A stretch of DNA of 23,891 nt from a virus. Lineage: Duplodnaviria; Heunggongvirae; Uroviricota; Caudoviricetes. Made by a program: the position numbers and the translations under genes. Positions 7,161 to 23,268 of the stretch are shown here, piece by piece. Location of the stretch: the IMG/VR virus record IMGVR_UViG_3300025896_000021, one strand, 5' to 3'. Below the pieces are notes generated by a model. It had not been told where the DNA came from, made no database searches, and was given only the letters and a program-made list of their open reading frames with translations. Every line of letters begins with the position of its first letter. Within the stretch, counting starts at the first letter, position 1.

Positions 7161-7163
7161 CCT

Positions 7164-7385: not shown

Positions 7386-7418
7386 TTCAATGTCCTGTTC
7401 TTTACTGTCTATGTATGT

Positions 7419-7447: not shown

Positions 7448-7449
7448 AT

Positions 7450-7587: not shown

Positions 7588-7594
7588 AGGAACC

Positions 7595-7759
7595 TTAAGA
7601 GTTGACAGTTTTGAATGGACTCAGTTCTTCATCCGAAGACTCGGAAACTTCGTACACCCATTTGATGGGCACTTGTAGATATTGAGCGATTTTGACAGGT
7701 GAATCGCCCTGTTCCAGCATCAGTTCAATATCGTAGTAGAGTTCAGACATTCGGCTCAT
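7595..7759 (-). CDS. Small acidic hypothetical protein, 54 aa (MSRMSELYYDIELMLEQG...EELSPFKTVNS)
   Basis: Manual translation; ATGA overlap with the upstream gene; below the track cut-off. Confidence 0.7.
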   Translation of the reverse strand: MSRMSELYYDIELMLEQGDSPVKIAQYLQVPIKWVYEVSESSDEELSPFKTVNS

Positions 7760-7971
7760 TTTGATTTGCTCACGGTAGATTTAAACAAGAAACCACTCAG
7801 TACGGTCAAGCCCCATGCTTGCAACCAAGTCACTTCGGCCACTCCTGCGATGGCGCCGACCAAGCAACCGTTCCACAACATGTACACCGGCCAACTCAGC
7901 AAGAAACTGAGAAACAGAATGCCCATGATACCAAGAACAACTGCACCAACGACAACGACAACTTTTTCCAT
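7756..7971 (-). CDS. Small membrane protein
   Basis: Two long hydrophobic segments; AGGA RBS. Confidence 0.8.
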   Translation of the reverse strand: MEKVVVVVGAVVLGIMGILFLSFLLSWPVYMLWNGCLVGAIAGVAEVTWLQAWGLTVLSGFLFKSTVSKSK

Positions 7972-7993
7972 GATTTTTCCTAGAGTTTAAAAA

Positions 7994-8266
7994 TTAAGCA
8001 GCAGACAACATGTTTGCAGGGACACGCCAGTTGGTCATACCAGACTTGACGATAATGAATTTACGATTCACCTTTTCAACTGAACCAATCACAGTCTGAC
8101 CGGAGCGTGAGCTAGTGAATTTTACTTGTGAGCCCTTGACTAGGGTGAATTTGTTTTTCGTTGCGATTTGACCACGAGCAAATTTGATTGCATCATTGAT
8201 TGAATTCAGGTCTTCGTTAGAGAAAGTGCCTGCGATGATAGAACGATTGATTTCTTGCAAAGTCAT
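7994..8266 (-). CDS. Hypothetical protein with SH3/KOW-like beta-barrel C-terminus
   Basis: KGSQVKFTSSRSGQTVIGSVEKVNRKFIIVK...WRVP pattern; AAGGA RBS. Confidence 0.8.
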   Translation of the reverse strand: MTLQEINRSIIAGTFSNEDLNSINDAIKFARGQIATKNKFTLVKGSQVKFTSSRSGQTVIGSVEKVNRKFIIVKSGMTNWRVPANMLSAA

Positions 8267-8298
8267 TTTGATTCCTTGTTTCGACTGTTTAAGATTCT

Positions 8299-8327
8299 AT
8301 TATATACCCAAAGTGATTTATTGTCAA
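8299..8327 (-). promoter_or_regulatory. sigma70 promoter TTGACA-17-TATAAT (cassette copy)
   Basis: Perfect consensus; leader AGAATCTTAAACAGT. Confidence 0.9.
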
Positions 8328-8611
8328 CCTTTTTTAACAGGTTTCACCCCATCAAAAGTCCATTCATTTGCTATCTCCTCATAGAAGTCGTTGCAATCAC
8401 CTTCAGTGCCATCATCCGCTAGATAGTAGTAGGCAGACTCTGTATTGCCTGCGCGGTCAATCTCGTCCTCATCGTAGCCGCACTGGTCATAACCTTCAGG
8501 GTCATAGATAAACCAAGCAACCGGTTGATTGTCGTAGTCGCTATACTTTTTGAACCACTTCTTGTCCTTGATGTATGCTGCACTGATTGTTGGACTGTGT
8601 TTTTCACGCAT
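8324..8611 (-). CDS. Acidic hypothetical protein
   Basis: AGGA RBS in the cassette leader; the TGA stop lies inside the next -35 box. Confidence 0.75.
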   Translation of the reverse strand: MREKHSPTISAAYIKDKKWFKKYSDYDNQPVAWFIYDPEGYDQCGYDEDEIDRAGNTESAYYYLADDGTEGDCNDFYEEIANEWTFDGVKPVKKG

Positions 8612-8643
8612 TTTAGTTCCTGTTCTTTACTGTCTAAGATTCT

Positions 8644-8672
8644 ATTATAGCACCGAAACCATTTACCGTCAA
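8644..8672 (-). promoter_or_regulatory. sigma70 promoter TTGACG-17-TATAAT (cassette copy)
   Basis: Near consensus, TG extension, leader AGAATCTTAGACAGTAAAGAACAGGA. Confidence 0.85.
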
Positions 8673-8677
8673 CCTTT

Positions 8678-8926
8678 TTATAGGTTCTTCAATAGGTGCA
8701 TTGTTAGGTCAGGGCCGCCGATCAGTACGCATTGACACGTGTACTTTAGGTAACCAGTATCATCACGGTATTTTGATAGCATATCAACGACACGAACTTG
8801 CTTGGGTGTGATTTTGATAACCTTACCCACATAAAGGCTATTGTGATGGGTGTATGCGACTGCATCACCCTCTGCCACAGTACGACCCAGAAGGTCTCGG
8901 TGATCTTCTGGAATAGTCTTACTCAT
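8678..8926 (-). CDS. Hypothetical protein, SH3/KOW-like
   Basis: DLLGRTVAEGDAVAY...VGKVIKITPKQVRV; TAATG overlap with the upstream gene. Confidence 0.8.
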   Translation of the reverse strand: MSKTIPEDHRDLLGRTVAEGDAVAYTHHNSLYVGKVIKITPKQVRVVDMLSKYRDDTGYLKYTCQCVLIGGPDLTMHLLKNL

Positions 8927-9168
8927 TATTTGGAAGTAATTTTGTTGATATTTGCAGAGATTTCGTCAATTTTTTTATCATGTTCCAACTTAGAAAGGAT
9001 TAATCCATACACGGTGTACAATAGTACACTCATTATACCGACTGAAAATGCAGTTTGAATTGTCTCCACAGAGACATTGTGTGCAATGTAATGTACTAGG
9101 CCTGCTGCGGCGACTGTACCAGCCATGAATCCAGCCAGAATGAGTAGAGCTTTGAGTTTAAGAGACAT
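8926..9168 (-). CDS. Small membrane protein (start re-assigned to MSLKLKAL at 9168)
   Basis: AAGGA RBS before ATG 9168; two hydrophobic helices. Confidence 0.75.
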   Translation of the reverse strand: MSLKLKALLILAGFMAGTVAAAGLVHYIAHNVSVETIQTAFSVGIMSVLLYTVYGLILSKLEHDKKIDEISANINKITSK

Positions 9169-9301
9169 TTTGAATTTCCTTTTGTGTGAGAATTGTGTTT
9201 GTGACGATAACACCACCGTATGCTTGCTGATACGTTTCAGCTACGGCTTTGACGAAAAATGTGAGAACTTTACCATTTGATGTAATCAGCGTGAAGTTCA
9301 T
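9158..9301 (-). CDS. Small hypothetical protein, 47 aa (MNFTLITSNGKVLTFFVKAVAETYQQAYGG...)
   Basis: Manual translation; AAGGA/TGGA RBS; directly downstream of promoter 9331-9359. Confidence 0.75.
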   Translation of the reverse strand: MNFTLITSNGKVLTFFVKAVAETYQQAYGGVIVTNTILTQKEIQNVS

Positions 9302-9330
9302 TTCCAGTTCCTTATCGTTTCAATACATGT

Positions 9331-9359
9331 ATTGTATCACGGAAACCATTTAATGTCAA
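9331..9359 (-). promoter_or_regulatory. sigma70 promoter TTGACA-17-TACAAT
   Basis: Spacer TTAAATGGTTTCCGTGA differs by 1 nt from the 7132-7160 copy. Confidence 0.85.
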
Positions 9360-9363
9360 CCTT

Positions 9364-9516
9364 TTAGGTCTCAGGGCGATTGCAGTGCTTATTCTTACGA
9401 CGGTACTGCACTTTGGATTGGACAACCTTAGGTTTGAACGGGGTGTTCTCGCAGAAAAGCACCCTATGTGCCCGATGTTTGGGCTGTTCAACAGTGAAAG
9501 ATATTACCTTTTTCAT
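9364..9516 (-). CDS. ArfA-like small basic protein, 50 aa (putative alternative ribosome-rescue factor)
   Basis: MKKVISFTVEQPKHRAHRVLFCENTPFKPKVVQSKVQYRRKNKHCNRPET; PF[KR]x[KR]V...YxRKxKH resembles E. coli ArfA. It sits exactly between two promoters. Confidence 0.6.
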   Translation of the reverse strand: MKKVISFTVEQPKHRAHRVLFCENTPFKPKVVQSKVQYRRKNKHCNRPET

Positions 9517-9523
9517 AACTCAT

Positions 9524-9552
9524 AGTATAACACAATGAGTATTTATTGTCAA
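9524..9552 (-). promoter_or_regulatory. sigma70 promoter TTGACA-17-TATACT, extended -10
   Basis: ATG 9516 follows 7 nt after the -10, so the transcript would be leaderless. Confidence 0.8.
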
Positions 9553-9785
9553 CCTTGGCGACCAGTGGTGTAGTGTTTACCTTTTGGACCTTTGCTGATA
9601 AAAGTTCTTCCATACAAATCTCCCTGGTACTCGTCACTTTTAACATTGTACTTCAACACCAATTTGATGCTCCGATCAAGGCTGATGCTGAGTAGCACAT
9701 TAGGTTTAAAGTCAAGTACCTCAGCAGTTACAGTTTGGTTGTTGTCAACACATTTGACTGACGTAGTTTCATCATACCGGATCAT
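9549..9785 (-). CDS. Hypothetical phage protein
   Basis: AGGAG RBS; the stop lies inside the next -35 box. Confidence 0.8.
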   Translation of the reverse strand: MIRYDETTSVKCVDNNQTVTAEVLDFKPNVLLSISLDRSIKLVLKYNVKSDEYQGDLYGRTFISKGPKGKHYTTGRQG

Positions 9786-10104
9786 TACTTTCTCCTAATG
9801 AGAATTCAATGCGTTTGATATTTTTGATAGTGAATGCGCGCCACTCATTTTTTTCTAAGTCAAAGACACGCAATGCCTTTGTACTATCAGATTGTTTGCG
9901 GGGCTTTGCACCTTCTTTCAATTCAACTACAGGTAGCTTGCTTGCTTCCAATGTGCATTTCATTACTCGCTCCGTGCCATCAACTTTAGTGAAAGTAATA
10001 GTTGCTTCACCGATTGCTAGCATTCCCTTAAGCCACTCGTGCAGTTTAGGTTCCATCTCATCAGTAATCGCAACATCTGTATTAACCCAGTTACCAGTTT
10101 CCAT
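9772..10104 (-). CDS. Sm-like/SH3 beta-barrel phage protein (WYL_2/DUF2693-like)
   Basis: ITFTKVDGTERVMKCTL...VFDLEKNEWRAF motif of the T4-like WYL_2 family. Confidence 0.8.
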   Translation of the reverse strand: METGNWVNTDVAITDEMEPKLHEWLKGMLAIGEATITFTKVDGTERVMKCTLEASKLPVVELKEGAKPRKQSDSTKALRVFDLEKNEWRAFTIKNIKRIEFSLGESNDPV

Positions 10105-10427
10105 TATTTTGATACTCCTAAAATTGTTTTTGCTCGGGCGACAAGTTCCTCATCACTGTCAGTGAATCGGTAACCTTCTTCGATAAGTCGCAATGTGTAG
10201 AATTTGTTAAAGAACAACCCGAACATCAATGCAGTAAGCATCCACAGTGGTAATGTGAACATGTGAAAGATTAGACAAATCAATGACATTACGAGATTAC
10301 CACGATAAAGCGGTACAATCCATCCTAGACTAAAGATGCCTAGAAAGAAATAGCTATAGCTAAAACCAATGTATCCGTCTTTGACGATACCAGTTTTAGT
10401 ATGGGTCATTTGAATTGCTTGTGCCAT
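10104..10427 (-). CDS. Membrane protein (GFSxxxFFxG...PLxRG family)
   Basis: Hydrophobic helices; motif GYIGFSYSYFFLG...VPLYRG, FNKFYTLRLIEEGY. Confidence 0.8.
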   Translation of the reverse strand: MAQAIQMTHTKTGIVKDGYIGFSYSYFFLGIFSLGWIVPLYRGNLVMSLICLIFHMFTLPLWMLTALMFGLFFNKFYTLRLIEEGYRFTDSDEELVARAKTILGVSK

Positions 10428-10898
10428 TTATTGCCCTTGTTCTTTCCAAGTTGTAAAGAAGTTTTTGATCTTAGTTTCTTCATCCCAAGAAGTAGTGTAG
10501 TCATTATCTTTGTCACACAAGGTCAGTGCCTCTGCCTTAGTAACAACACGATGCGACACAATTTGTTCACCTAAATGCTCTGAACTGAATGTCTTGGCTT
10601 CTTCCATCGTTACGGTATCCAATGCCCATGTAGATTTATCTTTACCGAAATCATCAACACCAATAGGAACTTCGACCATATAGCGGTCGCGGAACGTACT
10701 AACGCATTCAACGAGAACCCATTGAGTTTCTACCTTCTTAGACAGAGTAAACGAACCATCATCATTGGGTTCCCAGTTGAGAGTATCATCAATTTCCCAG
10801 CCCAGCTGATCACACAGACCTTCGGGGAAGGGAAGAATTAGATCACCTGTCTCAGGATCTTCCTCAACGATAACTGTAAAAGTTTTATTTTCATTCAT
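10428..10898 (-). CDS. Protein with N-terminal AbrB/SpoVT-like domain
   Basis: GDLILPFPEGLCDQLGWEIDDTLNWEPNDDGSFTLSK parallels 1658..1852. Confidence 0.75.
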   Translation of the reverse strand: MNENKTFTVIVEEDPETGDLILPFPEGLCDQLGWEIDDTLNWEPNDDGSFTLSKKVETQWVLVECVSTFRDRYMVEVPIGVDDFGKDKSTWALDTVTMEEAKTFSSEHLGEQIVSHRVVTKAEALTLCDKDNDYTTSWDEETKIKNFFTTWKEQGQ

Positions 10899-10899
10899 A

Positions 10900-11190
10900 T
10901 TAATTTACCAACATTCTAATTAAACCAATGCTGTCAATAGTGACAAGCAACAAATAATTTGCAATCATACCAAACGATTTACGAGTATAAGCAGCCCAAC
11001 CGTACATAGCGCAGCCACAAATCCATATAGGATAAAGATAGATAAGAGGCGGATTGGGTACAGTGAGCGCCATTGTGATCGAACACGCGATTGAAATAGC
11101 CCAAGCCATAATTTCAACGACAAAACGAACAGGGTAAGTTTTATAGTCATCTTTGATCCAAGTAAAAATACTAGCTACCGCATCATTCAT
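10900..11190 (-). CDS. Three-TM membrane protein (start re-assigned to ATG 11190)
   Basis: Three hydrophobic segments; ATGAATGA overlap with the upstream stop. Confidence 0.8.
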   Translation of the reverse strand: MNDAVASIFTWIKDDYKTYPVRFVVEIMAWAISIACSITMALTVPNPPLIYLYPIWICGCAMYGWAAYTRKSFGMIANYLLLVTIDSIGLIRMLVN

Positions 11191-11680
11191 GTTTATCAAT
11201 CACTGCTTGTAAAATTTCAACCACTAACTCATTGAGTGTGATATCTTTCTCGTGCGCAAGTTGCATCATAGTAAACAATTCATCTTTGGATAAATTGATC
11301 GGCACACTAACACGTTTGTCAAAGTCTTCACCTTTGAAAATAGCACTTGCTTTTTCTAGGAAGTCTTCTTCTGTCTCCAAGTCAATCCACTTAACATCAT
11401 CCCATGCTTGGTCTGCATCTATTGTACGGTACGATGCTTCCTCATACATAACATTCTTAAACAGAGGATTCAACCAACGATAAGGCTTTTGTTCTGAATC
11501 TTTGATTTCAACATGAATTTCGTAGACTACTTGATCTGTCGTATCAAATACGCATGACCCAGTTGCATAAGCACTTTCATAATCTAGAAAGCGGGCGTTA
11601 GGACCGTAACACTTCCAGCCATATTCGCTGCCGCCATTGATACGATGTTCAAGACTTTCGTTTACGTCTTTTAGTTGCAT
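11183..11680 (-). CDS. Hypothetical protein with C-terminal ribbon-helix-helix-like segment
   Basis: AAAGGA RBS; RVSVPINL-SKDELFTMMQLAHEK-DITLNELVVEIL fits the RHH strand-helix-helix pattern. Confidence 0.75.
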   Translation of the reverse strand: MQLKDVNESLEHRINGGSEYGWKCYGPNARFLDYESAYATGSCVFDTTDQVVYEIHVEIKDSEQKPYRWLNPLFKNVMYEEASYRTIDADQAWDDVKWIDLETEEDFLEKASAIFKGEDFDKRVSVPINLSKDELFTMMQLAHEKDITLNELVVEILQAVIDKHE

Positions 11681-11882
11681 TTTGTTTTCCTTTAAGGGTT
11701 TGTAAGTCTGCTAATTTGATAATTTCATTATAGATGAATTCCATTACACTGTAAAGTATTTTGGCATCACGCTCTGTCATCCCTGCTTCCCAAGAAGGGT
11801 CAGTAGGTTGTTTTCGCAATCCAAAATCATGCCTGTACTCTAGGCACATCATGTGGATTACTTCTTCTTTAGTCATTGTCAT
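11649..11882 (-). CDS. Hypothetical protein
   Basis: Packed into the operon with overlaps on both sides. Confidence 0.65.
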   Translation of the reverse strand: MTMTKEEVIHMMCLEYRHDFGLRKQPTDPSWEAGMTERDAKILYSVMEFIYNEIIKLADLQTLKGKQNATKRRKRKS

Positions 11883-12147
11883 GTTTCACCCAAGTATTTG
11901 TTCCACTGTTCCAGTGTCGGTTGTCATAAATTTGTGCACCGATTGTGTATCCCAAAAACCCCATCTCTATGCAGAGTCCTCCGTGGTCTCTACGGAAAGT
12001 CATCTCAAAGCTAAAACTAATTAACACACCACATCGGTAACATTCAATTTCCCAAGACTTGTTTTTAGTTAGTTGGCCGGCTTTAACAAACACAGTTTTG
12101 AATGTGTTACTCCATGGATTTTGAATTGTGAGGTTAAGATGGATCAT
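11869..12147 (-). CDS. Hypothetical phage protein (YDNRHW motif; start re-assigned to ATG 12147)
   Basis: The track start at 12300 overlaps 12215..12433; ATG 12147 follows promoter 12166-12195. Confidence 0.7.
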   Translation of the reverse strand: MIHLNLTIQNPWSNTFKTVFVKAGQLTKNKSWEIECYRCGVLISFSFEMTFRRDHGGLCIEMGFLGYTIGAQIYDNRHWNSGTNTWVKHDND

Positions 12148-12433: not shown

Positions 12434-12897
12434 TAAAAATCATTCTTAAAAGTTCGCCAATCATCTAAGTTTGGCTTTTCGTTTTCATCATATGTCCAAC
12501 CCAATGCCTTCATCATACGATGCTTGACTAACAAGTTAGGGCTACGAAATCTTCCAGTGTCTTCAAATCCCATCATTACACCGACTTCGCAAACTGCACC
12601 ACTACGGCAAATGCCCATAGTACAGTGAACAACCACGTTCATGCGATTGTCTTTTGCATGTTGCAGCAATCGAACCAACTCGTTAGCTTGTTCTTGGCTG
12701 CAACGCATTTCTTCTTCCAATGCATAGTCATGCAATTCAATGTCAAGGAACTCAAAGTTATGACGTTCCTTGAACACGTGCTTTGCTTCTGGCTTCCAAC
12801 CTGCAGGATCTGTAATGCTAATCAGCATAGAGTTCTCACCTGCTTCATGATGGAAGCGAGTTGGGATATCACTAGCAGCTACATTCTCAATCCACAT
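12433..12897 (-). CDS. CX5R (PTP/dual-specificity-type) phosphatase-like protein (start re-assigned to MWIENV at 12897)
   Basis: VVVHCTMGICRSGAV = HCxxGxxRS P-loop; LISITDP and FLDIE motifs; GAGG RBS. Confidence 0.8.
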   Translation of the reverse strand: MWIENVAASDIPTRFHHEAGENSMLISITDPAGWKPEAKHVFKERHNFEFLDIELHDYALEEEMRCSQEQANELVRLLQHAKDNRMNVVVHCTMGICRSGAVCEVGVMMGFEDTGRFRSPNLLVKHRMMKALGWTYDENEKPNLDDWRTFKNDF

Positions 12898-13351
12898 ATC
12901 GTACCTCAATAAATCCTTCATCCTTAGTTGGTTCTTGCCAACCTGCAATCATACTATCAACAACATTTTTCGGAATGTGTTTACCAAAGCGACCACTCAA
13001 TCGCACATCTAACTCGTCACGTACGGGTGTGCGGAACACCACAGCAACATGCTCATAATCACGCAACATATTAAACTTCTTTTTACGGCTATTAACTGTA
13101 GTAGAAGTTTGGTCCCATATGATATCTCGGCCCAGGTCCCGAGCATTCTCAACTTGAATAGCCATTAGCTTTACGGCTTGTGGCATATAGTCTTTGAACA
13201 CTTCGTTATAGGTTAGTCCAAGTCGTTCGGCTTCCATGTCAACCCACATGTCGGTAGATACAATAGTACAATCACTAGCCCAGGCTTGGTTCTTGATCCA
13301 AGTACTTTTACCTGCTGCGGGCACTCCGACTAATTGATAACATTTTGCCAT
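12887..13351 (-). CDS. P-loop polynucleotide-kinase-like protein (AAA_33); alternative GTG start at 13360
   Basis: Walker A GVPAAGKST, IVSTD, IIWDQTS, RxxR lid LDVRLSGR...HIPKNVVDSM. Confidence 0.8.
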   Translation of the reverse strand: MAKCYQLVGVPAAGKSTWIKNQAWASDCTIVSTDMWVDMEAERLGLTYNEVFKDYMPQAVKLMAIQVENARDLGRDIIWDQTSTTVNSRKKKFNMLRDYEHVAVVFRTPVRDELDVRLSGRFGKHIPKNVVDSMIAGWQEPTKDEGFIEVRYVD

Positions 13352-13356
13352 TTTCT

Positions 13357-13752
13357 TCACCGTGTACTGTTTGCTAATTCTTTGTAACCATTTGTTGTAG
13401 GATGAACTTTGTCTTTTGAAAGTTGAGGAATGAACAAAATCTTATCCTCAAACTTGCCAGCAACAATTTTCACTGCCTCTTGTGCGTTTGCATTTATTGC
13501 AGGGACGATCCAATATACTCTTTTTGCATCAACCACTTCTCTAAGTACAAACAACTCTGCAAGAGTTTTCATGTTTTTGGAATCATTTGACCCCAAACTG
13601 ATAATTACTGTTTTGGCTGCAAGATCCTTTGTGATATTTCTATCAACATAGTTGCGACTATTAATTCCCACCTTAGCATGAACTTCACACTCAGGGCGAT
13701 ACTGTGCTACGCCAACTGCAATACTATCACCTAACAGTAAACACTCAATCAT
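13357..13752 (-). CDS. SGNH/GDSL hydrolase (start re-assigned to MIECLLLGDS at 13752)
   Basis: Block I GDS, block III ISLGSND, block V DKVHP. Confidence 0.85.
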   Translation of the reverse strand: MIECLLLGDSIAVGVAQYRPECEVHAKVGINSRNYVDRNITKDLAAKTVIISLGSNDSKNMKTLAELFVLREVVDAKRVYWIVPAINANAQEAVKIVAGKFEDKILFIPQLSKDKVHPTTNGYKELANSTR

Positions 13753-14032
13753 TAGATTCGTCTTCCTCTTCGGGAATTGCTGCTTCAAGCTGCCGGATCA
13801 GAGATCGGACTGCACTTGTACTCATTGTCAGTGTAGATGCGGTGTAGCCATCGCCGGTCATACGCAGTTGAATATAGCCGGCAGGGTTACGTCCGATTGT
13901 GTACACTGCATCATCCTTCATCGGGTCGCGAGGAGCAACTACCTTAGGTATAACTGGAATTGCAGTTGGTTCCTCGTTAATAGCTGCATCAACCGTGTTG
14001 GCAATTTGCCGTTTACGCCATCCAAAAATCAT
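13745..14032 (-). CDS. Hypothetical protein (start re-assigned to ATG 14032)
   Basis: AAGGAG RBS before 14032. Confidence 0.7.
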   Translation of the reverse strand: MIFGWRKRQIANTVDAAINEEPTAIPVIPKVVAPRDPMKDDAVYTIGRNPAGYIQLRMTGDGYTASTLTMSTSAVRSLIRQLEAAIPEEEDESND

Positions 14033-14042
14033 ACTAACTCCT

Positions 14043-14228
14043 TTATTGAATGGTAGCAGTTTGATAACCACTACCACCCGTTTTAATCATAGCAACATGC
14101 GTTACCAACTTTAGAAACTCATCCATTTCCTCTGAACTTGCTGCCGCATGGGGTAGTTCCCCTTGCATCACTTTCCACAAACGTTCAACGTCTGTATCAG
14201 AAAGCCAAGTATCAAATTCATCTGTCAT
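14043..14228 (-). CDS. Hypothetical protein
   Basis: AAGGA RBS, directly after a promoter. Confidence 0.75.
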   Translation of the reverse strand: MTDEFDTWLSDTDVERLWKVMQGELPHAAASSEEMDEFLKLVTHVAMIKTGGSGYQTATIQ

Positions 14229-14246
14229 TTATGTTCCTTAAATTGT

Positions 14247-14275
14247 ATTATAGCATGGTATCCATTACTTGTCAA
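14247..14275 (-). promoter_or_regulatory. sigma70 promoter TTGACA-17-TATAAT, extended -10
   Basis: Perfect consensus. Confidence 0.85.
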
Positions 14276-14276
14276 C

Positions 14277-15296
14277 TTAGTCGCCGCCCTTGAGCAAAAA
14301 CTTGTTAGAAATTGCCTTGAAGGACACTTGTTTTTCGTTACACTTGAACACAAGACCTTCACGTTCTGGTCCATTGATATCGCCCATTACAGACTTACCT
14401 TCTGCAAGTTGCAGCAATGATTCAACTGATTCAATTAGCTCAGTGTTGCGGTGAAGCACAGGGCAGTGATTCAATCCAAACACTTCTACAAACGCCTTAC
14501 GTTCAGCAGGAGTGTAGTAACGTCCTGCATCAATATCGTAAATGTCGTAAACATAAAAGTCTTGGTCACGCATCTTGTACTTGTTACCTTGAATACCGTT
14601 GCCAATCAGTTCACCTTGAACTGCAAGGTTACCACCTGCAATCTTCAACTTTTCTTCTAGGTCGTGCTTAAGAGCAGCACGCCACAGTGAATTATCTTCG
14701 TTGCGTTTGAGGTCAAGGTTGCGTGAACACACACCAACATAGTCATCAATACGATAAACAGTCATTGACGAACCATCTAACTTTTCAGTCACTTCCCAAG
14801 ATAGATTCTCAGTCTTCCACACTTCCAACTCTACTGACAAGTTTTGAATACGCTCTTGGTCAGTCTTGGGAATCACTGAAGGGAACATGCCCTTGACTTC
14901 GCCTGCAAGTGCTGCGGGGATTGGTGCTTCGTACTTGGTGATACCGAGAAATTCAGATACATCATCACCGATCGCCATATCATTTGGAAATAACTTCACA
15001 GATTCTGGAGACAGTAACAGCCCTTGCGACAATTGACCACGCAACTTCACAGTACGGAGACGTTCGCCTTCAACACCTTCAAAAGTCTTAGCATAGTGTC
15101 CGGACTTGGTCAAGAACGGTGCGATAGTAGAGGGGATGAACGAATCAATTTCGCAATATACTGCCAGATCACCAGCAGTATATTCACCCTTCTTTACTAC
15201 GCAGGTCCAGCCACCTACGATAGCGCATTCAATTGCATCAGCGCCCACAATAGGACGCAGTGCATCAATCTTTCTAATAGTTGCCATCTTACGCAT
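14277..15296 (-). CDS. RNA ligase, DRB0094/Rnl2-like family with N-terminal OB module
   Basis: Motif I VTEKLDGSS, VCSRN, VQGELIG, FYVYDIYD, motif IV REGLVFK, motif V SFKAISN; N-terminal PIVGADAIECAIVGGWTCVVKKG and LRTVKLRGQLSQGLL. Confidence 0.9.
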   Translation of the reverse strand: MRKMATIRKIDALRPIVGADAIECAIVGGWTCVVKKGEYTAGDLAVYCEIDSFIPSTIAPFLTKSGHYAKTFEGVEGERLRTVKLRGQLSQGLLLSPESVKLFPNDMAIGDDVSEFLGITKYEAPIPAALAGEVKGMFPSVIPKTDQERIQNLSVELEVWKTENLSWEVTEKLDGSSMTVYRIDDYVGVCSRNLDLKRNEDNSLWRAALKHDLEEKLKIAGGNLAVQGELIGNGIQGNKYKMRDQDFYVYDIYDIDAGRYYTPAERKAFVEVFGLNHCPVLHRNTELIESVESLLQLAEGKSVMGDINGPEREGLVFKCNEKQVSFKAISNKFLLKGGD

Positions 15297-16178: not shown

Positions 16179-16604
16179 TCACTCAATAGCTCTACGTAAT
16201 ACAATTTCTTGACGGGCAAACGCATCAAGTTCCCAGGGCATGTCTAAGTATTTTGTCTTTTTGCTGTAAGTCTTGCCCATCCACATTCTAGCATTCTTTG
16301 GCAAGAACTTCATTTGGCCCTTAGCAAGTTGACGCACATGTACCATTTCGTGTGAAAGAGTCAGTGCCATATTCAGTAGTGAGAATTTTGTCAAACGTTT
16401 AGCTGGCTTGATTAGTACTAGATAACAATCTGCCATTTCTACATTGAGGGTTGCACCTTCCATACCATCAAGCATGTCATCGGTCACTTTGACTAAGACT
16501 GCTTTTCTGCTATTAGTCAAACCCAACTGGTCAATGATTGAGGGCATCAATGCACTAAGAAACTTTTTGCTTTTTTGATTGCTAGCTTCAACTGCGTATT
16601 CCAT
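16179..16604 (-). CDS. Zincin-like (HExxH) metallopeptidase-family protein
   Basis: LSHEMVHVRQ plus downstream PWELDA third-ligand motif. Confidence 0.75.
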   Translation of the reverse strand: MEYAVEASNQKSKKFLSALMPSIIDQLGLTNSRKAVLVKVTDDMLDGMEGATLNVEMADCYLVLIKPAKRLTKFSLLNMALTLSHEMVHVRQLAKGQMKFLPKNARMWMGKTYSKKTKYLDMPWELDAFARQEIVLRRAIE

Positions 16605-16991: not shown

Positions 16992-17272
16992 TGAGCAGAC
17001 CTTATTTTAATTGTATCCAAATTATCTTCCACTAAGGCAATCAATGCGTGAGTAAGAAATTTAACCTGTTCCTCGTTCATCTTTAAATTGTACGCATCAC
17101 TTAGTATGTGCAGGGTCTCATGCCACAATGCAATTTTTTGAGTTTGTTCTGAGAAATTATTTCCAATCCAAATCTCTTGGTCATTGAATCTAGCAAGACC
17201 AATAGTGCCCTGCATTTCCTCAGGTGTCTTGTACAATACTTCGTAAGTAATTCCGCAAATTTTCAATTTCAT
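16988..17272 (-). CDS. Small HExxH (ImmA/IrrE-like zincin) protein
   Basis: IALWHETLHILSD; ATGA overlap with the upstream gene. Confidence 0.65.
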   Translation of the reverse strand: MKLKICGITYEVLYKTPEEMQGTIGLARFNDQEIWIGNNFSEQTQKIALWHETLHILSDAYNLKMNEEQVKFLTHALIALVEDNLDTIKIRSAQ

Positions 17273-17541
17273 TCTTCAACTCCGAAATGTTCTTTTACTC
17301 GTCTTGCTGCATTTTGAATAGCATTGGAACTTTCAAATTCATCTTTATCCCAGTACCACTTTGATTCGTTAAGCACAGTGGTCATACATTCTGCTACAAT
17401 CAACTCGGCAAACTTTTGTAGTTCACTAACTCTAAACCCATAGAAGTCATATGGTTCTTTTTTCAGAGCCTCAATAAATTCATCTATTGAAAGTTTTTCT
17501 GTAATAGCCTGTTCAGCAAGTTCTTTAATTCGTTCGTTCAT
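17269..17541 (-). CDS. MNERIKEL...FAELIV...HFGVEE family protein, copy 1
   Basis: Shares three motif blocks with 21065 and 21443; ATG 17541 is 1 nt after the upstream stop. Confidence 0.85.
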   Translation of the reverse strand: MNERIKELAEQAITEKLSIDEFIEALKKEPYDFYGFRVSELQKFAELIVAECMTTVLNESKWYWDKDEFESSNAIQNAARRVKEHFGVEE

Positions 17542-17542
17542 T

Positions 17543-17629
17543 TTAGAATCCATCCTTGATTAGGATTGCCAGGCCCATGATGATAACTGGCAACATAACG
17601 ATAATCAAATTAGTAATTGCTTGTATCAT
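17543..17629 (-). CDS. Single-TM mini-protein, 28 aa (MIQAITNLIIVMLPVIIMGLAILIKDGF)
   Basis: Manual translation; ATGA overlap upstream; fills the gap exactly. Confidence 0.65.
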   Translation of the reverse strand: MIQAITNLIIVMLPVIIMGLAILIKDGF

Positions 17630-17877
17630 TTTAATCCCAATACTTTCTTTTCTGCTTCTGACAATTTAGCCAGGGCTCGTTTGCGGAGTTCACCGTTTTC
17701 ATATTCTGTCAATTCATCCAAACTGTCAAGGATGACAAATTCTTTTTCATAGACTTCATCATACTTGTTCTTTGCCTTCCATGCATCGGCAGCTTCTTTC
17801 GTTGCTACATAATACTTGTGGTTGTGACGATCACCACCGTCCCAAGTTTGAATATCCCAGCATTTAATGATTTGCAT
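17626..17877 (-). CDS. Hypothetical protein
   Basis: GGAG RBS; TAATG overlap with the upstream gene. Confidence 0.8.
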   Translation of the reverse strand: MQIIKCWDIQTWDGGDRHNHKYYVATKEAADAWKAKNKYDEVYEKEFVILDSLDELTEYENGELRKRALAKLSEAEKKVLGLK

Positions 17878-18215
17878 TATTTGACTCCAAAAGTGTTAAG
17901 TGCGGGTTGCACAGTGTTGATTAGAATTGTCTCGCGGGCGTGAGCGGGGCGCTTGCCACGTACAACTTCAAGCAAGCCGAATGTGAATACTTCGGCTCCA
18001 AACTCACGCAAGTTTTTGCTCAGGCCCCAATCTTTGTTCTCAGTCATAGCCCGTTGCATATGCTTTTGCATACGGCGATTCAGTGTACGCTTGACGTTGC
18101 CACCGAATGACACTGCGGTGATACCAACATATTGCTCACTAGTCAAAACATTGGTGATGACATAGATAGCATGATTGCGATCTGTTCTGCGCTTACGGAC
18201 GATTTTCGAGTTCAT
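17877..18215 (-). CDS. GIY-YIG nuclease-family protein
   Basis: HAIYVITN...QYVGIT, conserved R and H (RRMQKH), E (ARETILI) and terminal PALN. Confidence 0.75.
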   Translation of the reverse strand: MNSKIVRKRRTDRNHAIYVITNVLTSEQYVGITAVSFGGNVKRTLNRRMQKHMQRAMTENKDWGLSKNLREFGAEVFTFGLLEVVRGKRPAHARETILINTVQPALNTFGVK

Positions 18216-18221
18216 AAGTGT

Positions 18222-18250
18222 ATTATATACCCAAAACCATTTAATGTCAA
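18222..18250 (-). promoter_or_regulatory. sigma70 promoter TTGACA-17-TATAAT
   Basis: Perfect consensus; ATG 18215 follows 6 nt after the -10. Confidence 0.85.
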
Positions 18251-18762
18251 CCGTACGTTTCCAGTAAGTTTGTCACAAAATCGTCATCACTATCCCCGAG
18301 GTCCTTATCTGTTGTAAAAACACAACAGTCTCCGAACTTGGCTAGCTTTCGGCCAGCTGTATCATTGTCACAAACTGCTACAACCCTGCGATTCAGACAC
18401 TGCAACCAGTTCTTCAAGTCACTATTTGGGTTGTTAGATAGCACGGCCAACGCACTAAATCCACGCTCAGTGAGTCTGGCCGCATCGAACAGACCCTCAC
18501 ACACAAACACGACTGAGGGGCTTAAATCCAAGCTCTCAACGCCCCAAACAGTGTGGGTGGGCTGCTTTCTGTATGTAAAATACTTACCTTCTTTGGGGTT
18601 ATTTTGGGGCTTTTTCTCTCCGGTTGGGCGATATTGTTGGTATCCTACAAGCTGACCGCTGAGATTCCACAAGTAAAATGTGGCTACTCCCTCAACTTCG
18701 TCTAGCATAGGACGGTGAAGTTCTAAGTTTAAGTGACGACTGACCAGGTGTTCTTTAAGCAT
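18247..18762 (-). CDS. Stand-alone Toprim (DnaG primase-like) domain protein (start re-assigned to ATG 18762)
   Basis: VFVCEGLFDA and VCDND (DxD) Toprim motifs; LVGYQQYRP. The track ATG at 18768 abuts the -10 box, so it cannot be transcribed from this promoter. Confidence 0.8.
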   Translation of the reverse strand: MLKEHLVSRHLNLELHRPMLDEVEGVATFYLWNLSGQLVGYQQYRPTGEKKPQNNPKEGKYFTYRKQPTHTVWGVESLDLSPSVVFVCEGLFDAARLTERGFSALAVLSNNPNSDLKNWLQCLNRRVVAVCDNDTAGRKLAKFGDCCVFTTDKDLGDSDDDFVTNLLETYG

Positions 18763-18768
18763 ACCCAT

Positions 18769-18798: not shown

Positions 18799-19233
18799 TT
18801 ACTTGCAGACTAGGGCTAATGCTTCACGGAAGATTTCTTGTTGTTTTTGTGCAACATCTACTTCCCAGGGAAGACTATTGTATTCTTCGTAGGTCATATC
18901 TTCTGGTAGTTTCTTAGTATAGGGTATACCATGCCAATAACACATCCCATTTGATTTCATTGATAGTATACCAATATGTTTCTGGTGAACGTGAATCAGT
19001 TCGTGAGTTAGTATCTTTGGTAGTAGATTGAAGGGTAAGTCGTAGTTAATGCCGATGCGATTAACATGATTCATATCTATACCACCATATACATTATCTG
19101 GTAGTGGATATAAACATACTTCAAGTGATTTTGGTAACTCAATAATTTTAGCTACTGCATCGGCGAATGAAGTTATTATAACTTCGTGCTTGTAACTATG
19201 TTGATTATTCTGGTAATAGAACTTTATTTCCAC
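18799..19233 (-). CDS. Zincin-like (HExxH) metallopeptidase-family protein; start uncertain (GTG 19233 or ATG 19269)
   Basis: LTHELIHVHQ plus PWEVDV; paralogous to 16179..16604. Confidence 0.75.
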   Translation of the reverse strand: MEIKFYYQNNQHSYKHEVIITSFADAVAKIIELPKSLEVCLYPLPDNVYGGIDMNHVNRIGINYDLPFNLLPKILTHELIHVHQKHIGILSMKSNGMCYWHGIPYTKKLPEDMTYEEYNSLPWEVDVAQKQQEIFREALALVCK

Positions 19234-19693
19234 TGTCTTCTTCTTTAGGAATAGCATGTGCATATTCATAGTTAACAGTATCTACATTTTCACGAAATAC
19301 AATGGCACCGTTCTTCAAATGAAAACGTCTAGCCAATTCAGTTTTAGGACTTAATGTGACAAAGCGAGTTACACTAGGGTGAGATTTTTGAATCTCTTTA
19401 ACTGCACGAATTAATAACTCTCTACCCTTGCCTGCTTTATAACTCCAGATAGTATAGAATACTGCTGTAGTCGGAACTAATGTAGTGCTACTCAAATCAG
19501 TAACATCTTGTGGGACAAAATCATGAAAGCTAATGCACACCATTGCTTCAGGTGATGTTTCAGTTTCGTCAGTTAATGCTGCCACTATTCTACCATCACT
19601 TACCCTAAAGTCAGCGGGAATCTCAGGACGAACCGGATCATCTTTTATAAATTCTAGAAGTTTGTGTGTGAGGTCTTTGATGAAGTGGAACAT
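19205..19693 (-). CDS. GNAT-fold protein resembling a minimal malonyl-CoA decarboxylase catalytic core
   Basis: TTAVFYTIW, RFVTLSP and RRFHLKNGA echo the MCD motifs AVFYSIS, TLSP and ARFHLxNGA. Confidence 0.6.
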   Translation of the reverse strand: MFHFIKDLTHKLLEFIKDDPVRPEIPADFRVSDGRIVAALTDETETSPEAMVCISFHDFVPQDVTDLSSTTLVPTTAVFYTIWSYKAGKGRELLIRAVKEIQKSHPSVTRFVTLSPKTELARRFHLKNGAIVFRENVDTVNYEYAHAIPKEEDSGNKVLLPE

Positions 19694-19701
19694 AGTAAAT
19701 G

Positions 19702-19709
19702 TATTTATA
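19702..19709 (-). promoter_or_regulatory. T4-consensus late promoter TATAAATA
   Basis: Exact match 8 nt upstream of ATG 19693. Confidence 0.7.
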
Positions 19710-19731
19710 CGTAGTGCATTAAATGCGTATA

Positions 19732-20493
19732 TTATGTGCTATATATTTGAGCTAATGATTTTAGGATAATGGCTTCTCGTTGCTGCTTAGTTTTAGCTCC
19801 AAGAATAGTGATATTGTATAGTTGGTTATTTGCATTGATTAGCATAGTTATACAATAACCAGCAGCATTAGTAAACCCAGTCTTGATAGTGATTATACCT
19901 TGCTGACCAAAGTACTTTATGGTAGGACTAGTAGACAATTTAGTATCACGTTTGCCCCTTGAATAATGAGTAACTAGATTATGAGATTGTGCTGCTGTTT
20001 GCACTATATCAAATGCACTTACCGCTTTAGTGAGTTTTACAATATCATCTACTGTACTAAAGTTCATTGCACTTAGTCCAGTTGGTTCTACAAACCCAGT
20101 ATGTGACATATTCAACTCGGTTGCATGTTTGTTCATAGTTTCAACAAACTTTACTTTGCCACCGGGGAAGTTTTCAGCTAGAGTTATCGCAGCTAGGTTA
20201 TCGCTACTGATTAATGATAGCTTGACTAAATCCATTCTGGTTAGAATCATTCCTTTACTAATCTTGGTATTAGTAATTCTATTGCCAGTAACGGTCAATC
20301 GTTCATCTAACGATTGGTGCTGTGTTAGTACAGTATAAACTGTCATTAACTTGCTGATACTAGCTATACTAACTTTCTCACCTTGCTGGTTACTGCTTAC
20401 TACTTGATTGCTGGTTAAATTATAGATAATCGTGCTGGTGTCTGCCAAAGCTAGTAATGGCAACAATAACAGTATTAAAATAATTTTACGCAT
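19732..20493 (-). CDS. D-alanyl-D-alanine carboxy/endopeptidase, peptidase S11 (PBP5/PBP7-like), secreted
   Basis: Signal peptide; SxxK (ASISKLMT), SxN (SSDN) and KTG (IKTGFTNAAG); GMSHTGFVEPTGL-like segment. Confidence 0.9.
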   Translation of the reverse strand: MRKIILILLLLPLLALADTSTIIYNLTSNQVVSSNQQGEKVSIASISKLMTVYTVLTQHQSLDERLTVTGNRITNTKISKGMILTRMDLVKLSLISSDNLAAITLAENFPGGKVKFVETMNKHATELNMSHTGFVEPTGLSAMNFSTVDDIVKLTKAVSAFDIVQTAAQSHNLVTHYSRGKRDTKLSTSPTIKYFGQQGIITIKTGFTNAAGYCITMLINANNQLYNITILGAKTKQQREAIILKSLAQIYST

Positions 20494-20738: not shown

Positions 20739-21068
20739 TTAAAAAGGGATGTCATCATCCATATCAGCAAACACTACTGGTTCACGCTTGGGTGCTACAT
20801 AGTTTTCATTGTGGAAATTGTCAAACACATCTTGGTACTCTCCGTTCCAATCACTGCTACGCAACCTGTCTTGATTATTGCACAAAATTTCAACTTTGTC
20901 AAGACTTGAGTGAGGGTTCCAAGGATGATGTACAGTGACGTATCCATTATAGAATGTACCTTCCCAGGCACCGTTGACTACCCAAAAGTCAAAGTGCGTA
21001 GGACTGTGCTCTTGCTTAACGTTGACAAGCAAACTTGGTCGTTCTTTGGTGCCTAGCATCAATCTCAT
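20739..21068 (-). CDS. Hypothetical protein ending in the SSB-like tail DMDDDIPF
   Basis: ATGA overlap and GGAG RBS supplied by the upstream gene end. Confidence 0.8.
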   Translation of the reverse strand: MRLMLGTKERPSLLVNVKQEHSPTHFDFWVVNGAWEGTFYNGYVTVHHPWNPHSSLDKVEILCNNQDRLRSSDWNGEYQDVFDNFHNENYVAPKREPVVFADMDDDIPF

Positions 21069-21280
21069 TCTTCAACTCCGAAATGTTCTCGTGTGGGTTT
21101 ATTCAAATGCCAAGCATTGTGTCCATCAGCAATAAATTTCTCCTGAACTGCTAATACTTCTGCCACAATCAACTCGGCGAAACAATCAAGGCGTGTCATT
21201 TCTGCGAATTCAGGAAACGTGCCTGTCTCATCGACAGTAAACCCTGACATACGGGCAAGCTCTTTAATTCGTTCGTTCAT
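21065..21280 (-). CDS. MNERIKEL...FAELIV...HFGVEE family protein, copy 2
   Basis: Motif blocks shared with copies 1 and 3; ATG 21280 is 1 nt after the upstream stop. Confidence 0.85.
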   Translation of the reverse strand: MNERIKELARMSGFTVDETGTFPEFAEMTRLDCFAELIVAEVLAVQEKFIADGHNAWHLNKPTREHFGVEE

Positions 21281-21281
21281 T

Positions 21282-21446
21282 TCACTTACCTTCAAACAGA
21301 TAGACTACAACTCGACCAAAGGATGCAGCAATGCTCACAAAGATAAAACATTGAAACCAAAACACAGGATCTTGCCAGGCGCTGTGTGCGGAAAATATAA
21401 AAAGAACGACTGCGGACAGCCAAACACTTACGGGTACTGATTTCAT
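21282..21446 (-). CDS. Small two-TM membrane protein, 54 aa (MKSVPVSVWLSAVVLFIFSAHSAWQDPVFWFQCFIFVSIAASFGRVVVYLFEGK)
   Basis: Manual translation; ATGA overlap with copy 3, GGAG RBS; fills the gap exactly. Confidence 0.7.
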   Translation of the reverse strand: MKSVPVSVWLSAVVLFIFSAHSAWQDPVFWFQCFIFVSIAASFGRVVVYLFEGK

Positions 21447-21673
21447 TTTTTAACTCCAAAATGTTCTTTAATCTCTTGAATAGGATGTAAGTATTCTTCA
21501 CCTGGTCTACTCATTCTAACAGAATAAGGAGCAATAATATCAATACACTCCTGCACAATCAACTCGGCGAACTTTTCAAGGTTATAGTCATACTCGCCAG
21601 CAGTACACTTGCCAGGGCGAGGCCAGAGGCTCTGAGCACCGTCTAACCAAAGTTGTTTAATTCGTTCGTTCAT
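21443..21673 (-). CDS. MNERIK...FAELIV...HFGVKK family protein, copy 3
   Basis: Motif blocks shared; ATGA overlap with the ligase gene. Confidence 0.85.
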   Translation of the reverse strand: MNERIKQLWLDGAQSLWPRPGKCTAGEYDYNLEKFAELIVQECIDIIAPYSVRMSRPGEEYLHPIQEIKEHFGVKK

Positions 21674-22566
21674 ACCATCTCCAAATAGTTACGCACCCAT
21701 GATAGGCGTGATTGTTCGTCCAAGGCAGTGTAGTCAACAATGTTAGCCCGAATAGCATCCACTAGTGGATAATATTCTTCATCAAGATTTTTCTTGATAT
21801 CTGCTTCCATGTTCACTAACTTGTCAGTACGAGGATTGCGGGCAACCCACTTGCTGGTCAAGTAGTATGGACTTTTGATCTTTGCAGATACTTTAAAGTC
21901 CTCAGTGTAGAATACAAAGCCTTCGTGCTTAACAGTCTTAACTTCTTTCAACACTTCACCCAATGTGCAACGCTTCCATTCCACTTGGTGATCCGACAAT
22001 GCATATTGGTGATACAAGCTAAGTCCATCGTTTTGACTACGGCTTTCCCAAGTCTTTTCACGATAGCCCAGCAAATACAGTCCTGGCTTTTCTACAATGA
22101 TATGTGGGTCATTTTCATGCACACATTCAAACATAAAAGTTAGGGTAGGAAAACCACTTACATATCGTTCAAAAGTTTCACGCCGACGGTCGATAAAGGA
22201 GTTAGCCATATCAACATAGTCGTTAGCAGTTGATCCAGTTGTGGACACTAACAACTTTCCGTTGTACCAAGTCACTGCAACCATAAAGCCATTGACCTTA
22301 CGAAAGCATTCCACTATGGTATCTTCACTTAACACAGGAGCCTTAGCTTCTACGCCATAGTTGTAGATTTTAGTGAATGGACGTTGCACCACATTGAAGT
22401 CAGCATCTACGATAGTACCGCGGCATTCTTCCAAGTAGTCGTTCCACAAGTTATCGTAGAACACACGCTTGGAATACTTTAGCACATAGATACCATCGCC
22501 GGCAGACTTCATAGAAACCAACTTTGGGTTAGCTAATACAAACTCTTTCAATTCATCCTTGTTCAT
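21670..22566 (-). CDS. rnlA: RNA ligase, T4 Rnl1 (RnlA) family
   Basis: ECRG...RPFTKIYN N-terminal motifs, motif I FRKVNGFM, FMFEC, motif IV HEGFVF, motif V AKIKSPYY. Confidence 0.85.
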   Translation of the reverse strand: MNKDELKEFVLANPKLVSMKSAGDGIYVLKYSKRVFYDNLWNDYLEECRGTIVDADFNVVQRPFTKIYNYGVEAKAPVLSEDTIVECFRKVNGFMVAVTWYNGKLLVSTTGSTANDYVDMANSFIDRRRETFERYVSGFPTLTFMFECVHENDPHIIVEKPGLYLLGYREKTWESRSQNDGLSLYHQYALSDHQVEWKRCTLGEVLKEVKTVKHEGFVFYTEDFKVSAKIKSPYYLTSKWVARNPRTDKLVNMEADIKKNLDEEYYPLVDAIRANIVDYTALDEQSRLSWVRNYLEMV

Positions 22567-22724
22567 CGTAATTCCTCTAATGCTCGTTTAACATGTTTCT
22601 TTTTGTAGTGTGAAAAGACTTTGATGATATCCTCATCAAACAGATAGTGAGGATTGCTACGGTTGTGTTCACCAATGAATTCTTCAACCTCGTCAAGCAA
22701 CTTAGCAAACTTTTCTTCTTTCAT
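22563..22724 (-). CDS. Hypothetical protein (start re-assigned to ATG 22724)
   Basis: ATG 1 nt after the upstream stop; ATGA overlap with the ligase start. Confidence 0.7.
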   Translation of the reverse strand: MKEEKFAKLLDEVEEFIGEHNRSNPHYLFDEDIIKVFSHYKKKHVKRALEELR

Positions 22725-22725
22725 A

Positions 22726-23268
22726 TTAGTGGTGAGAACGAATCTCACCCTTCAATGCGTCTTTAACCATCATATCAAAATCTGATACGACACGACCAGT
22801 ACTGTCAAAAGCTACATCACGGGCACGATACTTTTCCATGCCAGTCACTGCTCCATGAACGTGGCCATAAAAGTGAACTGAACCGCGGTGCATTTGATCC
22901 CATTCCCAGATAGGGTAATGCATCATAATGACCATTTGACCATCGTGATTGTATCTCAGGTACTGATGCACTTCTTTGAACTCTGCACGGAATGCAGGGT
23001 CGTTCAACAGTTTGCGGTCGTGATTACCTTCAATCAGAATCTTAGTGCCGTTCAGTCTACGCAGAATTGCAACTGCATCCTTGGCTGACAAGAATGCAAA
23101 GTCACCCAAAATGAATGTTTCATCTTCTGGAGCAACGTCACGGTTCCACTCATGTATCATTTGCTCTCGCATATGATCGGTGTCAGTAAAGCCTGCTCGG
23201 GTTACTGGGCAGAACTTCATAATATTTGCGTGACCAAAGTGTAAGTCACTAGTGATAAATTTTCTCAT
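22726..23268 (-). CDS. Calcineurin-like metallophosphoesterase
   Basis: DxH (SDLHFGH), GD (ILGDF), GNHD, HYP and GHVH motifs. Confidence 0.9.
   Translation of the reverse strand: MRKFITSDLHFGHANIMKFCPVTRAGFTDTDHMREQMIHEWNRDVAPEDETFILGDFAFLSAKDAVAILRRLNGTKILIEGNHDRKLLNDPAFRAEFKEVHQYLRYNHDGQMVIMMHYPIWEWDQMHRGSVHFYGHVHGAVTGMEKYRARDVAFDSTGRVVSDFDMMVKDALKGEIRSHH

Follow-up and report, generated by a model that had tools for sequence, protein, structure and literature searches.

The stretch of DNA analysed here (23,891 nucleotides, referred to as the window) comes from the IMG/VR virus record IMGVR_UViG_3300025896_000021, which is assigned to the Caudoviricetes, and carries on its minus strand a gene for a stand-alone 162-residue protein, mini-MCD, that retains the fold and the catalytic residues of the core of malonyl-coenzyme A (malonyl-CoA) decarboxylase (MCD). 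Mini-MCD is a member of a large, unnamed protein family common in aquatic phages and on SAR11 chromosomes, and among SAR11 genomes its short form and the canonical enzyme are almost mutually exclusive. Its most probable function, at about even odds, is that of a minimal single-domain malonyl-CoA decarboxylase. The parent record amounts to 73.7 kb, of which the window is a part, and is about 21% complete according to CheckV. Complete phage genomes of 349 and 364 kb carry close relatives of the mini-MCD gene, and the window therefore belongs to a jumbo phage, most likely an aquatic one.

MCD (MLYCD/MatA, EC 4.1.1.9) is represented by the Pfam families PF05292 and PF17408 and by the PDB structures 2ygw, 4f0x, 4ksa, 4ksf and 4ks9. 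Mini-MCD scores 29.5 bits with PF05292 (E 7e-7), where the gathering threshold is 23.2, and covers positions 63-138 of the 253 in the profile. It gave no match to the helical domain PF17408 (MCD_N), which the canonical SAR11 MCD does contain, and no match at E ≤1 to acetyltransferase families of Pfam (PF00583, PF13508 and others). When the PDB was searched with the single protein by phmmer and with the family profile by hmmsearch, five MCD sequences were the only significant matches (best E about 8e-8), and each of them consisted of two stretches, residues about 19-122, running from the start of the catalytic domain to the (T/S)LSP motif, and residues 123-137 with the FHLxNGA motif, between which 65-90 residues of MCD were skipped. 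Likewise, hhalign of the mini-MCD family against six canonical MCDs returned a probability of 96% (E 3.6e-9). The similarity thus greatly exceeds what chance would give.

By chain numbering in the PDB alignments, Ser115 corresponds to human Ser329 and His125 to human His423, and in a MAFFT alignment with canonical SAR11 MCDs the VNYEY motif was aligned to MVNYxY. The roles of these residues in MCD rest on mutagenesis and structures: Ser329 and His423 form the catalytic dyad of the human enzyme, with a 110-fold loss of kcat in S329A; the histidine stands in the place of the general-acid tyrosine of ordinary GNATs and is held by a hydrogen bond from Tyr456; Phe288 on β4 is strictly conserved; and the segment between β5 and β6 is a poorly conserved insert of three to five helices (PMC3701320). 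Mini-MCD shares with MCD P20, V21, R30, F79, Y80, N128-G129-A130 and N136, as well as the dyad and Y144, and the part that is absent from it is exactly this β5-β6 helical insert (α5-α7). Ser115 and His125 are 10 residues apart, compared with 94 for the human pair and about 73-77 in the bacterial MCDs examined. The first-pass annotation, made from the letters alone, had described an MCD-like GNAT with the Ser/His dyad kept and its two motifs directly joined, and this description is borne out by the spacing and by the Pfam and PDB matches; the reading frame it gave and the three peptide strings it quoted were all found in the translation, with codon positions checked by hand.

The predicted structure points in the same direction. 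An AlphaFold2 model built with a 113-sequence alignment reached a predicted local distance difference test (pLDDT) score of 94 and a predicted template-modelling (pTM) score of 0.87, and shows the canonical order of GNAT strands and helices. Foldseek placed MCDs first, with TM scores (query) of up to 0.77. In VIA superpositions, MCDs gave Z 16.3-15.1, with root-mean-square deviations of 2.2-2.4 Å over 148-150 residues and 25-31% identity, followed by the decarboxylating GNAT-like domains of SxtA, GphF and CurA (Z 14.9-13.8, 11-14% identity) and by acetyltransferases (Z up to about 14, 8-16% identity); in this model-based comparison, the gap in Z between MCD and other GNATs is modest, but the gap in identity is clear. 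Failure to superpose on MCD had been named beforehand as grounds for discarding the assignment, and the MCD structures in fact gave the model its best superposition among all GNATs. The viral structure library BFVD yielded generic GNATs only (TM score for the query ≤0.60, 8-17% identity) and no annotated viral MCD.

Residues 1-150 of the model correspond to residues 196-463 of human MCD, a range that includes the Tyr456 region, and since model residue 1 falls at human residue 196, mini-MCD begins at the start of the catalytic domain. From the superposition we infer that Ser115 and His125 lie side by side in space. The two proteins thus share a GNAT core (2.2 Å over 149 residues) with the Ser-His dyad, the His-holding tyrosine, Phe/Tyr on β4, the FHxxNGA and (T/S)LSP motifs and the N-terminal PV...R elements. 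Unlike mini-MCD, however, MCD has an N-terminal helical oligomerisation domain of about 160-190 residues and a three- to five-helix β5-β6 insert of 65-90 residues. Mini-MCD also has a shorter motif-A loop that is nearer to the canonical GxG of GNATs, has neither the β6-β7 loop nor the C-terminal extension, measures about 150 residues against 430-460, falls in a separate clade, and carries the family-specific Cys53 and Trp83.

At E ≤1e-3, mini-MCD matches more than 6,500 proteins that are 89-284 residues long, typically about 150, and a precomputed PF05292 hit was present in 120 of 120 relatives among the matches listed. An exhaustive search of 50%-identity representatives gave 380 clusters, nearly all of them free-standing proteins of 140-160 residues, with only two longer relatives (359 and 370 residues). 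These two fused forms were considered as a clue to function and set aside as uninformative, the extra 220 or so residues giving no Pfam match and a marginal match to a GPI-transamidase chain (E 0.01). Alignments with close homologues begin at residue 1 of mini-MCD, so that the start codon is right, and residues 145-162 form a non-conserved tail of low model confidence, whose coding sequence overlaps the next open reading frame by 65 nucleotides.

Conservation was counted in 113 family representatives that are 33-54% identical to the query. Asp19, Tyr80, Thr113, Phe124 and Tyr144 are invariant (113/113), while at least 90% conservation was found for P20, R22, R30, C53, P61, W83, S84, G88, G90, S115, P116, A121, H125, N128, G129, A130 and N141, with Ser115, His125 and Cys53 each retained in 112 representatives. 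The motif A Y-K-A-G-K-G, which includes the conserved G88 and G90, fits the GNAT pyrophosphate loop (Q/R)xxGx(G/A). Moreover, position 123, two residues before the catalytic histidine and occupied by arginine in mini-MCD, is basic in 73 of the representatives; at the same position, an arginine of CurA binds the 3'-phosphate of CoA, and RpMCD likewise has arginine there. The GxG loop together with the basic residue 123 therefore indicates an acyl-CoA substrate.

PHROGs and NCBIfam contain no family for mini-MCD, NCBI calls one member a "hypothetical protein", and no paper on a phage or short-form MCD was found in the literature. Megablast of the region against cultured phages gave no match, and tblastn against cultured phages recovered only Pelagibacter phage Mosig, with a homologue of 38% identity that is annotated as hypothetical.

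The family is also well represented in SAR11. A degenerate DNA pattern demanding TLSPxTxxAxxFHxxNGA, that is, directly joined motifs, was scanned over a species-representative genome collection and found at least 120 loci, of which about 114 among the matches listed belong to Pelagibacteraceae/Pelagibacterales, complete chromosomes included; the few remaining loci are on short contigs of metagenome-assembled genomes and may be mis-binned phage. The SAR11 short forms retain every motif, add a basic N-terminal extension and are about 35% identical to the protein of the window. In a sample of 151 Pelagibacteraceae genomes that were at least 80% complete, an intact short form occurs in 57 genomes (plus one cut by a contig end) and canonical MCD, of about 436 residues with PF05292 and MCD_N, in 42, a set that includes one genome (G053) whose MCD contains stops. 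Both forms occur together in a single genome, that of Candidatus Pelagibacter sp. Uisw_106 (G001), and there the short gene is decayed (L089, 3930-4440, minus strand), with a frameshift where the Gly motif contains an A-run, DPDRP in place of DPVRP, NFGY in place of NFEY, and N-terminal stops; the frameshift by itself is possibly a homopolymer sequencing error. The exclusivity of the two forms is significant by Fisher's exact test (p = 4e-11, with shared ancestry ignored) and plausibly backs malonyl-CoA decarboxylase activity of the short form.

In SAR11, canonical MCD lies in a cluster with a family-III CoA-transferase, DctP, DctQ and DctM, accompanied by Dus and TauE (L210, 2577-9815; L211, 658-7916). 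This cluster of CoA-transferase, tripartite ATP-independent periplasmic (TRAP) transporter and MCD is plausibly a malonate uptake and activation module, with a CoA-transferase instead of a MatB-type synthetase. The orthologous CoA-transferase is present in 41 of the 42 canonical genomes and in nine others, and four of those nine (G003, which is the genome of isolate HIMB2226, G019, G117 and G144) keep the whole cluster without canonical MCD and have the short form. In G144, a pair of TauE and short-form genes directly follows the cluster, in the slot that MCD holds in G148. In the CoA-transferase tree, G003, G019 and G144 form one clade (97/94) that, together with G117, lies inside an otherwise canonical clade supported at 100/99; a "neither" lineage in that same clade has also lost its TRAP genes, at least in G090. 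A cluster kept with the short form in the place of MCD matches what functional substitution predicts. In addition, a neighbourhood of isocitrate lyase and the acyl-CoA regulator ScfR was considered as evidence and rejected, as it proved to be an indel whose place in the chromosome is fixed, alternating with a pair of GNAT fragment and TauE.

Acting as a malonyl-CoA decarboxylase, a GNAT fold of about 145 residues would bind malonyl-CoA along β4, with the Gly-rich loop G88-x-G90 holding the pyrophosphate and Arg123 the 3'-phosphate of CoA. The thioester carbonyl would be polarised by Ser115 and His125, the latter positioned by Tyr144; loss of CO2 and protonation of the enolate would then give acetyl-CoA. 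Such an enzyme would dispense with the N-terminal helical oligomerisation domain, the three-helix β5-β6 insert, the β6-β7 loop and the C-terminal extension of canonical MCD. Malonyl-CoA is the committed precursor of fatty-acid synthesis, and during phage infection the host malonyl-CoA pool might be lowered by this activity and its carbon returned as acetyl-CoA.

Several observations weigh against this assignment. The counterpart of the human Phe288, F79, is phenylalanine in only 68 of the 113 representatives and alanine in the SAR11 short forms, and MCD has nothing equivalent to the conserved Cys53 and Trp83, a hint that the pocket has been modified. No consistent metabolic neighbour of the short gene was found in the phage or SAR11 loci examined, distant family members included. 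The 364-kb relative (G152) encodes a β-ketoacyl synthase, an enzyme that needs malonyl-ACP (ACP, acyl carrier protein), and this fits poorly with simple depletion of malonyl-CoA. As for SAR11, about 51 of the 151 genomes have neither form, the exclusivity is phylogenetically structured, and the CoA-transferase tree appears to resolve only one or two switches from canonical to short form, which are few events. Most short-form SAR11 genomes are also without the malonate uptake cluster, and the main role of the short form is therefore not malonate catabolism. In line with a lineage-dependent pattern, coastal and offshore Pelagibacteraceae genera have been reported to differ in the distribution of canonical mlycd (PMC12636525).

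The same Ser/His chemistry could also serve a different substrate, such as malonyl-ACP, which would yield an acetyl-ACP primer for a ketoacyl synthase in the manner of the GNAT-like loading domains of polyketide synthases (PKS), or methylmalonyl-CoA, or another carboxyacyl thioester. We regard this as unlikely, yet it is the alternative with the most behind it. The next-best structural matches are GNAT-like decarboxylases of PKS and non-ribosomal peptide synthetase assemblies (CurA GNAT_L, 2ree/2ref; GphF, 6mfc; SxtA, 7uci), which share the fold (Z 13.8-14.9) and the dyad of His and Ser/Thr where GNATs have Tyr/Glu; remodelling of the acyl pocket is suggested by Cys53 and Trp83, which are particular to the family, and by Phe79, which is not conserved; and fatty-acid desaturases are encoded by the complete relatives G152 and G153, that of G152 in a cluster with a flavin monooxygenase, a ketoacyl synthase and a short-chain dehydrogenase/reductase (SDR). 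These PKS-type domains, however, are ACP-dependent parts of megasynthases with Thr rather than Ser, whereas mini-MCD is free-standing, and at 25-31% it shares roughly double the identity with MCD that it shares with these domains. Moreover, the CoA-specific contacts (GxG loop and basic residue 123) are kept, five related phage records yielded no ACP gene (PF00550), the lipid cluster of G152 is some 35 kb away from its mini-MCD gene and was not found in the fragment of the window, and the exclusivity in SAR11 is specifically with malonyl-CoA decarboxylase. The malonyl-ACP decarboxylases MadA/MadB (YiiD) resemble the proposal in their chemistry on a malonyl thioester, but MadA/YiiD was ruled out as a relative of mini-MCD, as decarboxylation by these enzymes takes place in a hot-dog domain, through a catalytic Asn, and the MadA GNAT domain has no decarboxylase activity (PMC8666670).

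Less probable again is an ordinary GNAT, that is, an acyl-CoA-dependent acyltransferase whose target would be a protein of host or phage, a tRNA or a small molecule and in which His125 or Cys53 would serve transfer instead of decarboxylation. Mini-MCD does have the size, the topology and the Gly-rich pyrophosphate loop of canonical stand-alone GNAT N-acetyltransferases (GCN5, AANAT, RimI), with an xxGxG motif A more canonical than that of MCD; acetyltransferases reach Z of about 14; the nearly invariant Cys53 could carry an acyl intermediate; and the gene lies amid RNA-repair and other non-metabolic genes. Nevertheless, the Pfam acetyltransferase families went unmatched, transferases share only 8-16% identity with mini-MCD, His125 stands where GNATs have their general-acid Tyr, just as the His of the decarboxylases does, the Ser and the Tyr that holds the His, both foreign to transferases, are conserved throughout the family, and the Arg proposed for S-acetyl transfer in CurA is without a conserved counterpart. 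A non-catalytic acyl-CoA-binding or regulatory protein on an MCD scaffold would agree with the missing oligomerisation domain and with the lack of an operon partner, but is very improbable, given that a triad-like catalytic set nearly invariant at 33-54% identity to the query is hard to explain without catalysis.

With respect to the origin of the family, a quick maximum-likelihood tree places a long, fully supported branch between the short family and the canonical SAR11 MCDs. With canonical MCD as the root, the short forms of SAR11 group tightly into a single clade (98), which lies within metagenomic, largely phage, diversity. This topology, from a quick search with a narrow outgroup and with phage origin confirmed for few of the metagenomic rows, hints at a transfer of the short form from phage to SAR11. 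A bolder scenario, which we hold as tentative and somewhat doubtful, is that the protein of about 150 residues is a fully active enzyme and the smallest known MCD, at one-third of the canonical size, which would have diversified in aquatic phages, been captured once by SAR11, the most abundant bacterium of the ocean, and functionally displaced the 436-residue housekeeping enzyme in a large part of its lineages. If mini-MCD is active as a malonyl-CoA decarboxylase, the helical domain and the insert of MCD would be dispensable for catalysis, and the protein would offer a minimal scaffold for the study and engineering of cofactor-free thioester decarboxylation. It would also be an unannotated auxiliary metabolic gene of aquatic phages, aimed at a precursor of host lipid synthesis, and would give a function to a "hypothetical protein" of more than one-third of the sampled SAR11 genomes. 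The features of the gene in the window are collected in Table 1.

Table 1. Features of the mini-MCD gene and its upstream region, with positions in the window.
Feature	Position	Strand	Remarks
Mini-MCD gene, 162 residues, ATG start, stop codon included	19205..19693	-	Stand-alone MCD-core GNAT protein
DDPVRP N-terminal motif, residues 18-23	19625..19642	-	P20 and V21 align with 'HPV' of MCD
Cys53	19535..19537	-	Aligns to a polar β3 position, E/Q/H in canonical MCDs; family-specific
β4 and Gly-rich CoA-pyrophosphate loop, residues 77-91, AVFYTIWSYKAGKGR	19421..19465	-	F79 aligns with human MCD Phe288
TLSP motif	19346..19357	-	Ser115 is the equivalent of human MCD catalytic Ser329
FHLKNGA motif	19304..19324	-	His125 is the equivalent of human MCD catalytic His423; position of the general-acid Tyr of ordinary GNATs
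VNYEY motif	19262..19276	-	Tyr144 aligns with MVNYxY of MCD (human Tyr456)
TATAAATA box	19702..19709	-	End of the box 8 nt ahead of the ATG, no intervening Shine-Dalgarno; related box, [TCA]ATAAATA or GCTAAATA, conserved in orthologues; candidate expression signal

Directly upstream of the mini-MCD gene in the window, 19732-20493 (minus strand) encodes a PBP5-like D-Ala-D-Ala carboxypeptidase of 253 residues (Peptidase_S11, E 3e-35), a phage-encoded secreted cell-wall enzyme whose N-terminal segment resembles a signal peptide. On the other side, the protein of 18799-19269 (minus strand) is a paralogue of another small protein at 16179-16604 (minus strand), both matching phrog_10499 and phrog_16532; the former also has a weak match to DUF6782 (putative metallopeptidase) with an HExxH-like THELIH. 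The adjoining region 17877-18768 (minus strand) encodes a 173-residue Toprim-only protein, whose match to phage DNA primase is confined to the central part (phrog_849, positions 149-326 of 435), next to a 112-residue GIY-YIG-only protein. Across 80 related viral loci, a small GIY-YIG gene recurs in 74, a phosphoesterase in 51, the metallopeptidase neighbour in 28 and the S11 peptidase in 19. As the GIY-YIG gene lies downstream of mini-MCD in 74 of these 80 loci, it is probably not a freely mobile homing endonuclease. Gene context was rejected as a clue to function, with only the GIY-YIG and phosphoesterase genes recurring, and distant family members sit in typical phage settings that have no common metabolic partner. 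Mosig was the only cultured carrier recovered; its homologue (Mosig_00145, hypothetical) is flanked by ThyX and a gp59-like gene, amid replication and nucleotide-metabolism genes.

The window also contains, at 12887-15296 and 21670-23268 (minus strand), an RNA ligase (phrog_968), a ligase of the Rnl/tail-fibre-attachment type (phrog_562), a polynucleotide-kinase-like ATPase and a phosphoesterase, and this RNA-repair-type gene set suggests a countermeasure to host anticodon nucleases. Small proteins that start with MNERIKEL and end with EHFGVEE or EHFGVKK are present in several copies (17269-17553, 21065-21295 and 21443-21673, minus strand). Elsewhere in the lineage, the 364-kb genome G152 carries at L248 (G152:C1:240000-254000), in open reading frames spanning 2863-12030 (plus strand), a DUF6492 protein, a fatty-acid desaturase, an FMO-like flavin monooxygenase, a β-ketoacyl synthase (FabF/B-like), an SDR (FabG/FabI-like) and several unknowns. 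By its gene content, this co-oriented cluster is a putative lipid or polyketide-type biosynthetic module in a jumbo phage, and the phage lineage manipulates lipid metabolism.

The exact TATAAATA that the first-pass annotation had pointed out upstream of the gene is indeed present on the strand of the gene (Table 1). The accompanying suggestion that the gene acts late in infection is not supported: TATAAATA occurs once in the window, against 1.5 copies expected by chance, no search for a gp55-type late-transcription system was made, and the Mosig homologue sits with replication and nucleotide-metabolism genes, so that a T4-type late-promoter reading of the box was not adopted. The occurrence of the box is nonetheless not random. 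Among 79 upstream regions (that of the window and those of 78 orthologous loci), 29 have the exact TATAAATA octamer within 60 nucleotides of the gene; in many of the others [CA]ATAAATA stands at an equal distance, and a second set shows GCTAAATA and then GAGG. Of the 15 ATAAATA copies in the 73.7-kb record, 7 are located no more than 40 nucleotides upstream of a start on the same strand, compared with about 4% expected, and a TAAATA-type box is plausible as a candidate expression signal. Just before TATAAATA, at about 19712-19745 (minus strand) and at the equivalent place in L002-L011, there is a conserved, partly palindromic element, CGCATATAATATGCG / CACATAATATACGC, some 25-45 nucleotides upstream of the mini-MCD start, which could be the terminator of the upstream gene or an operator.

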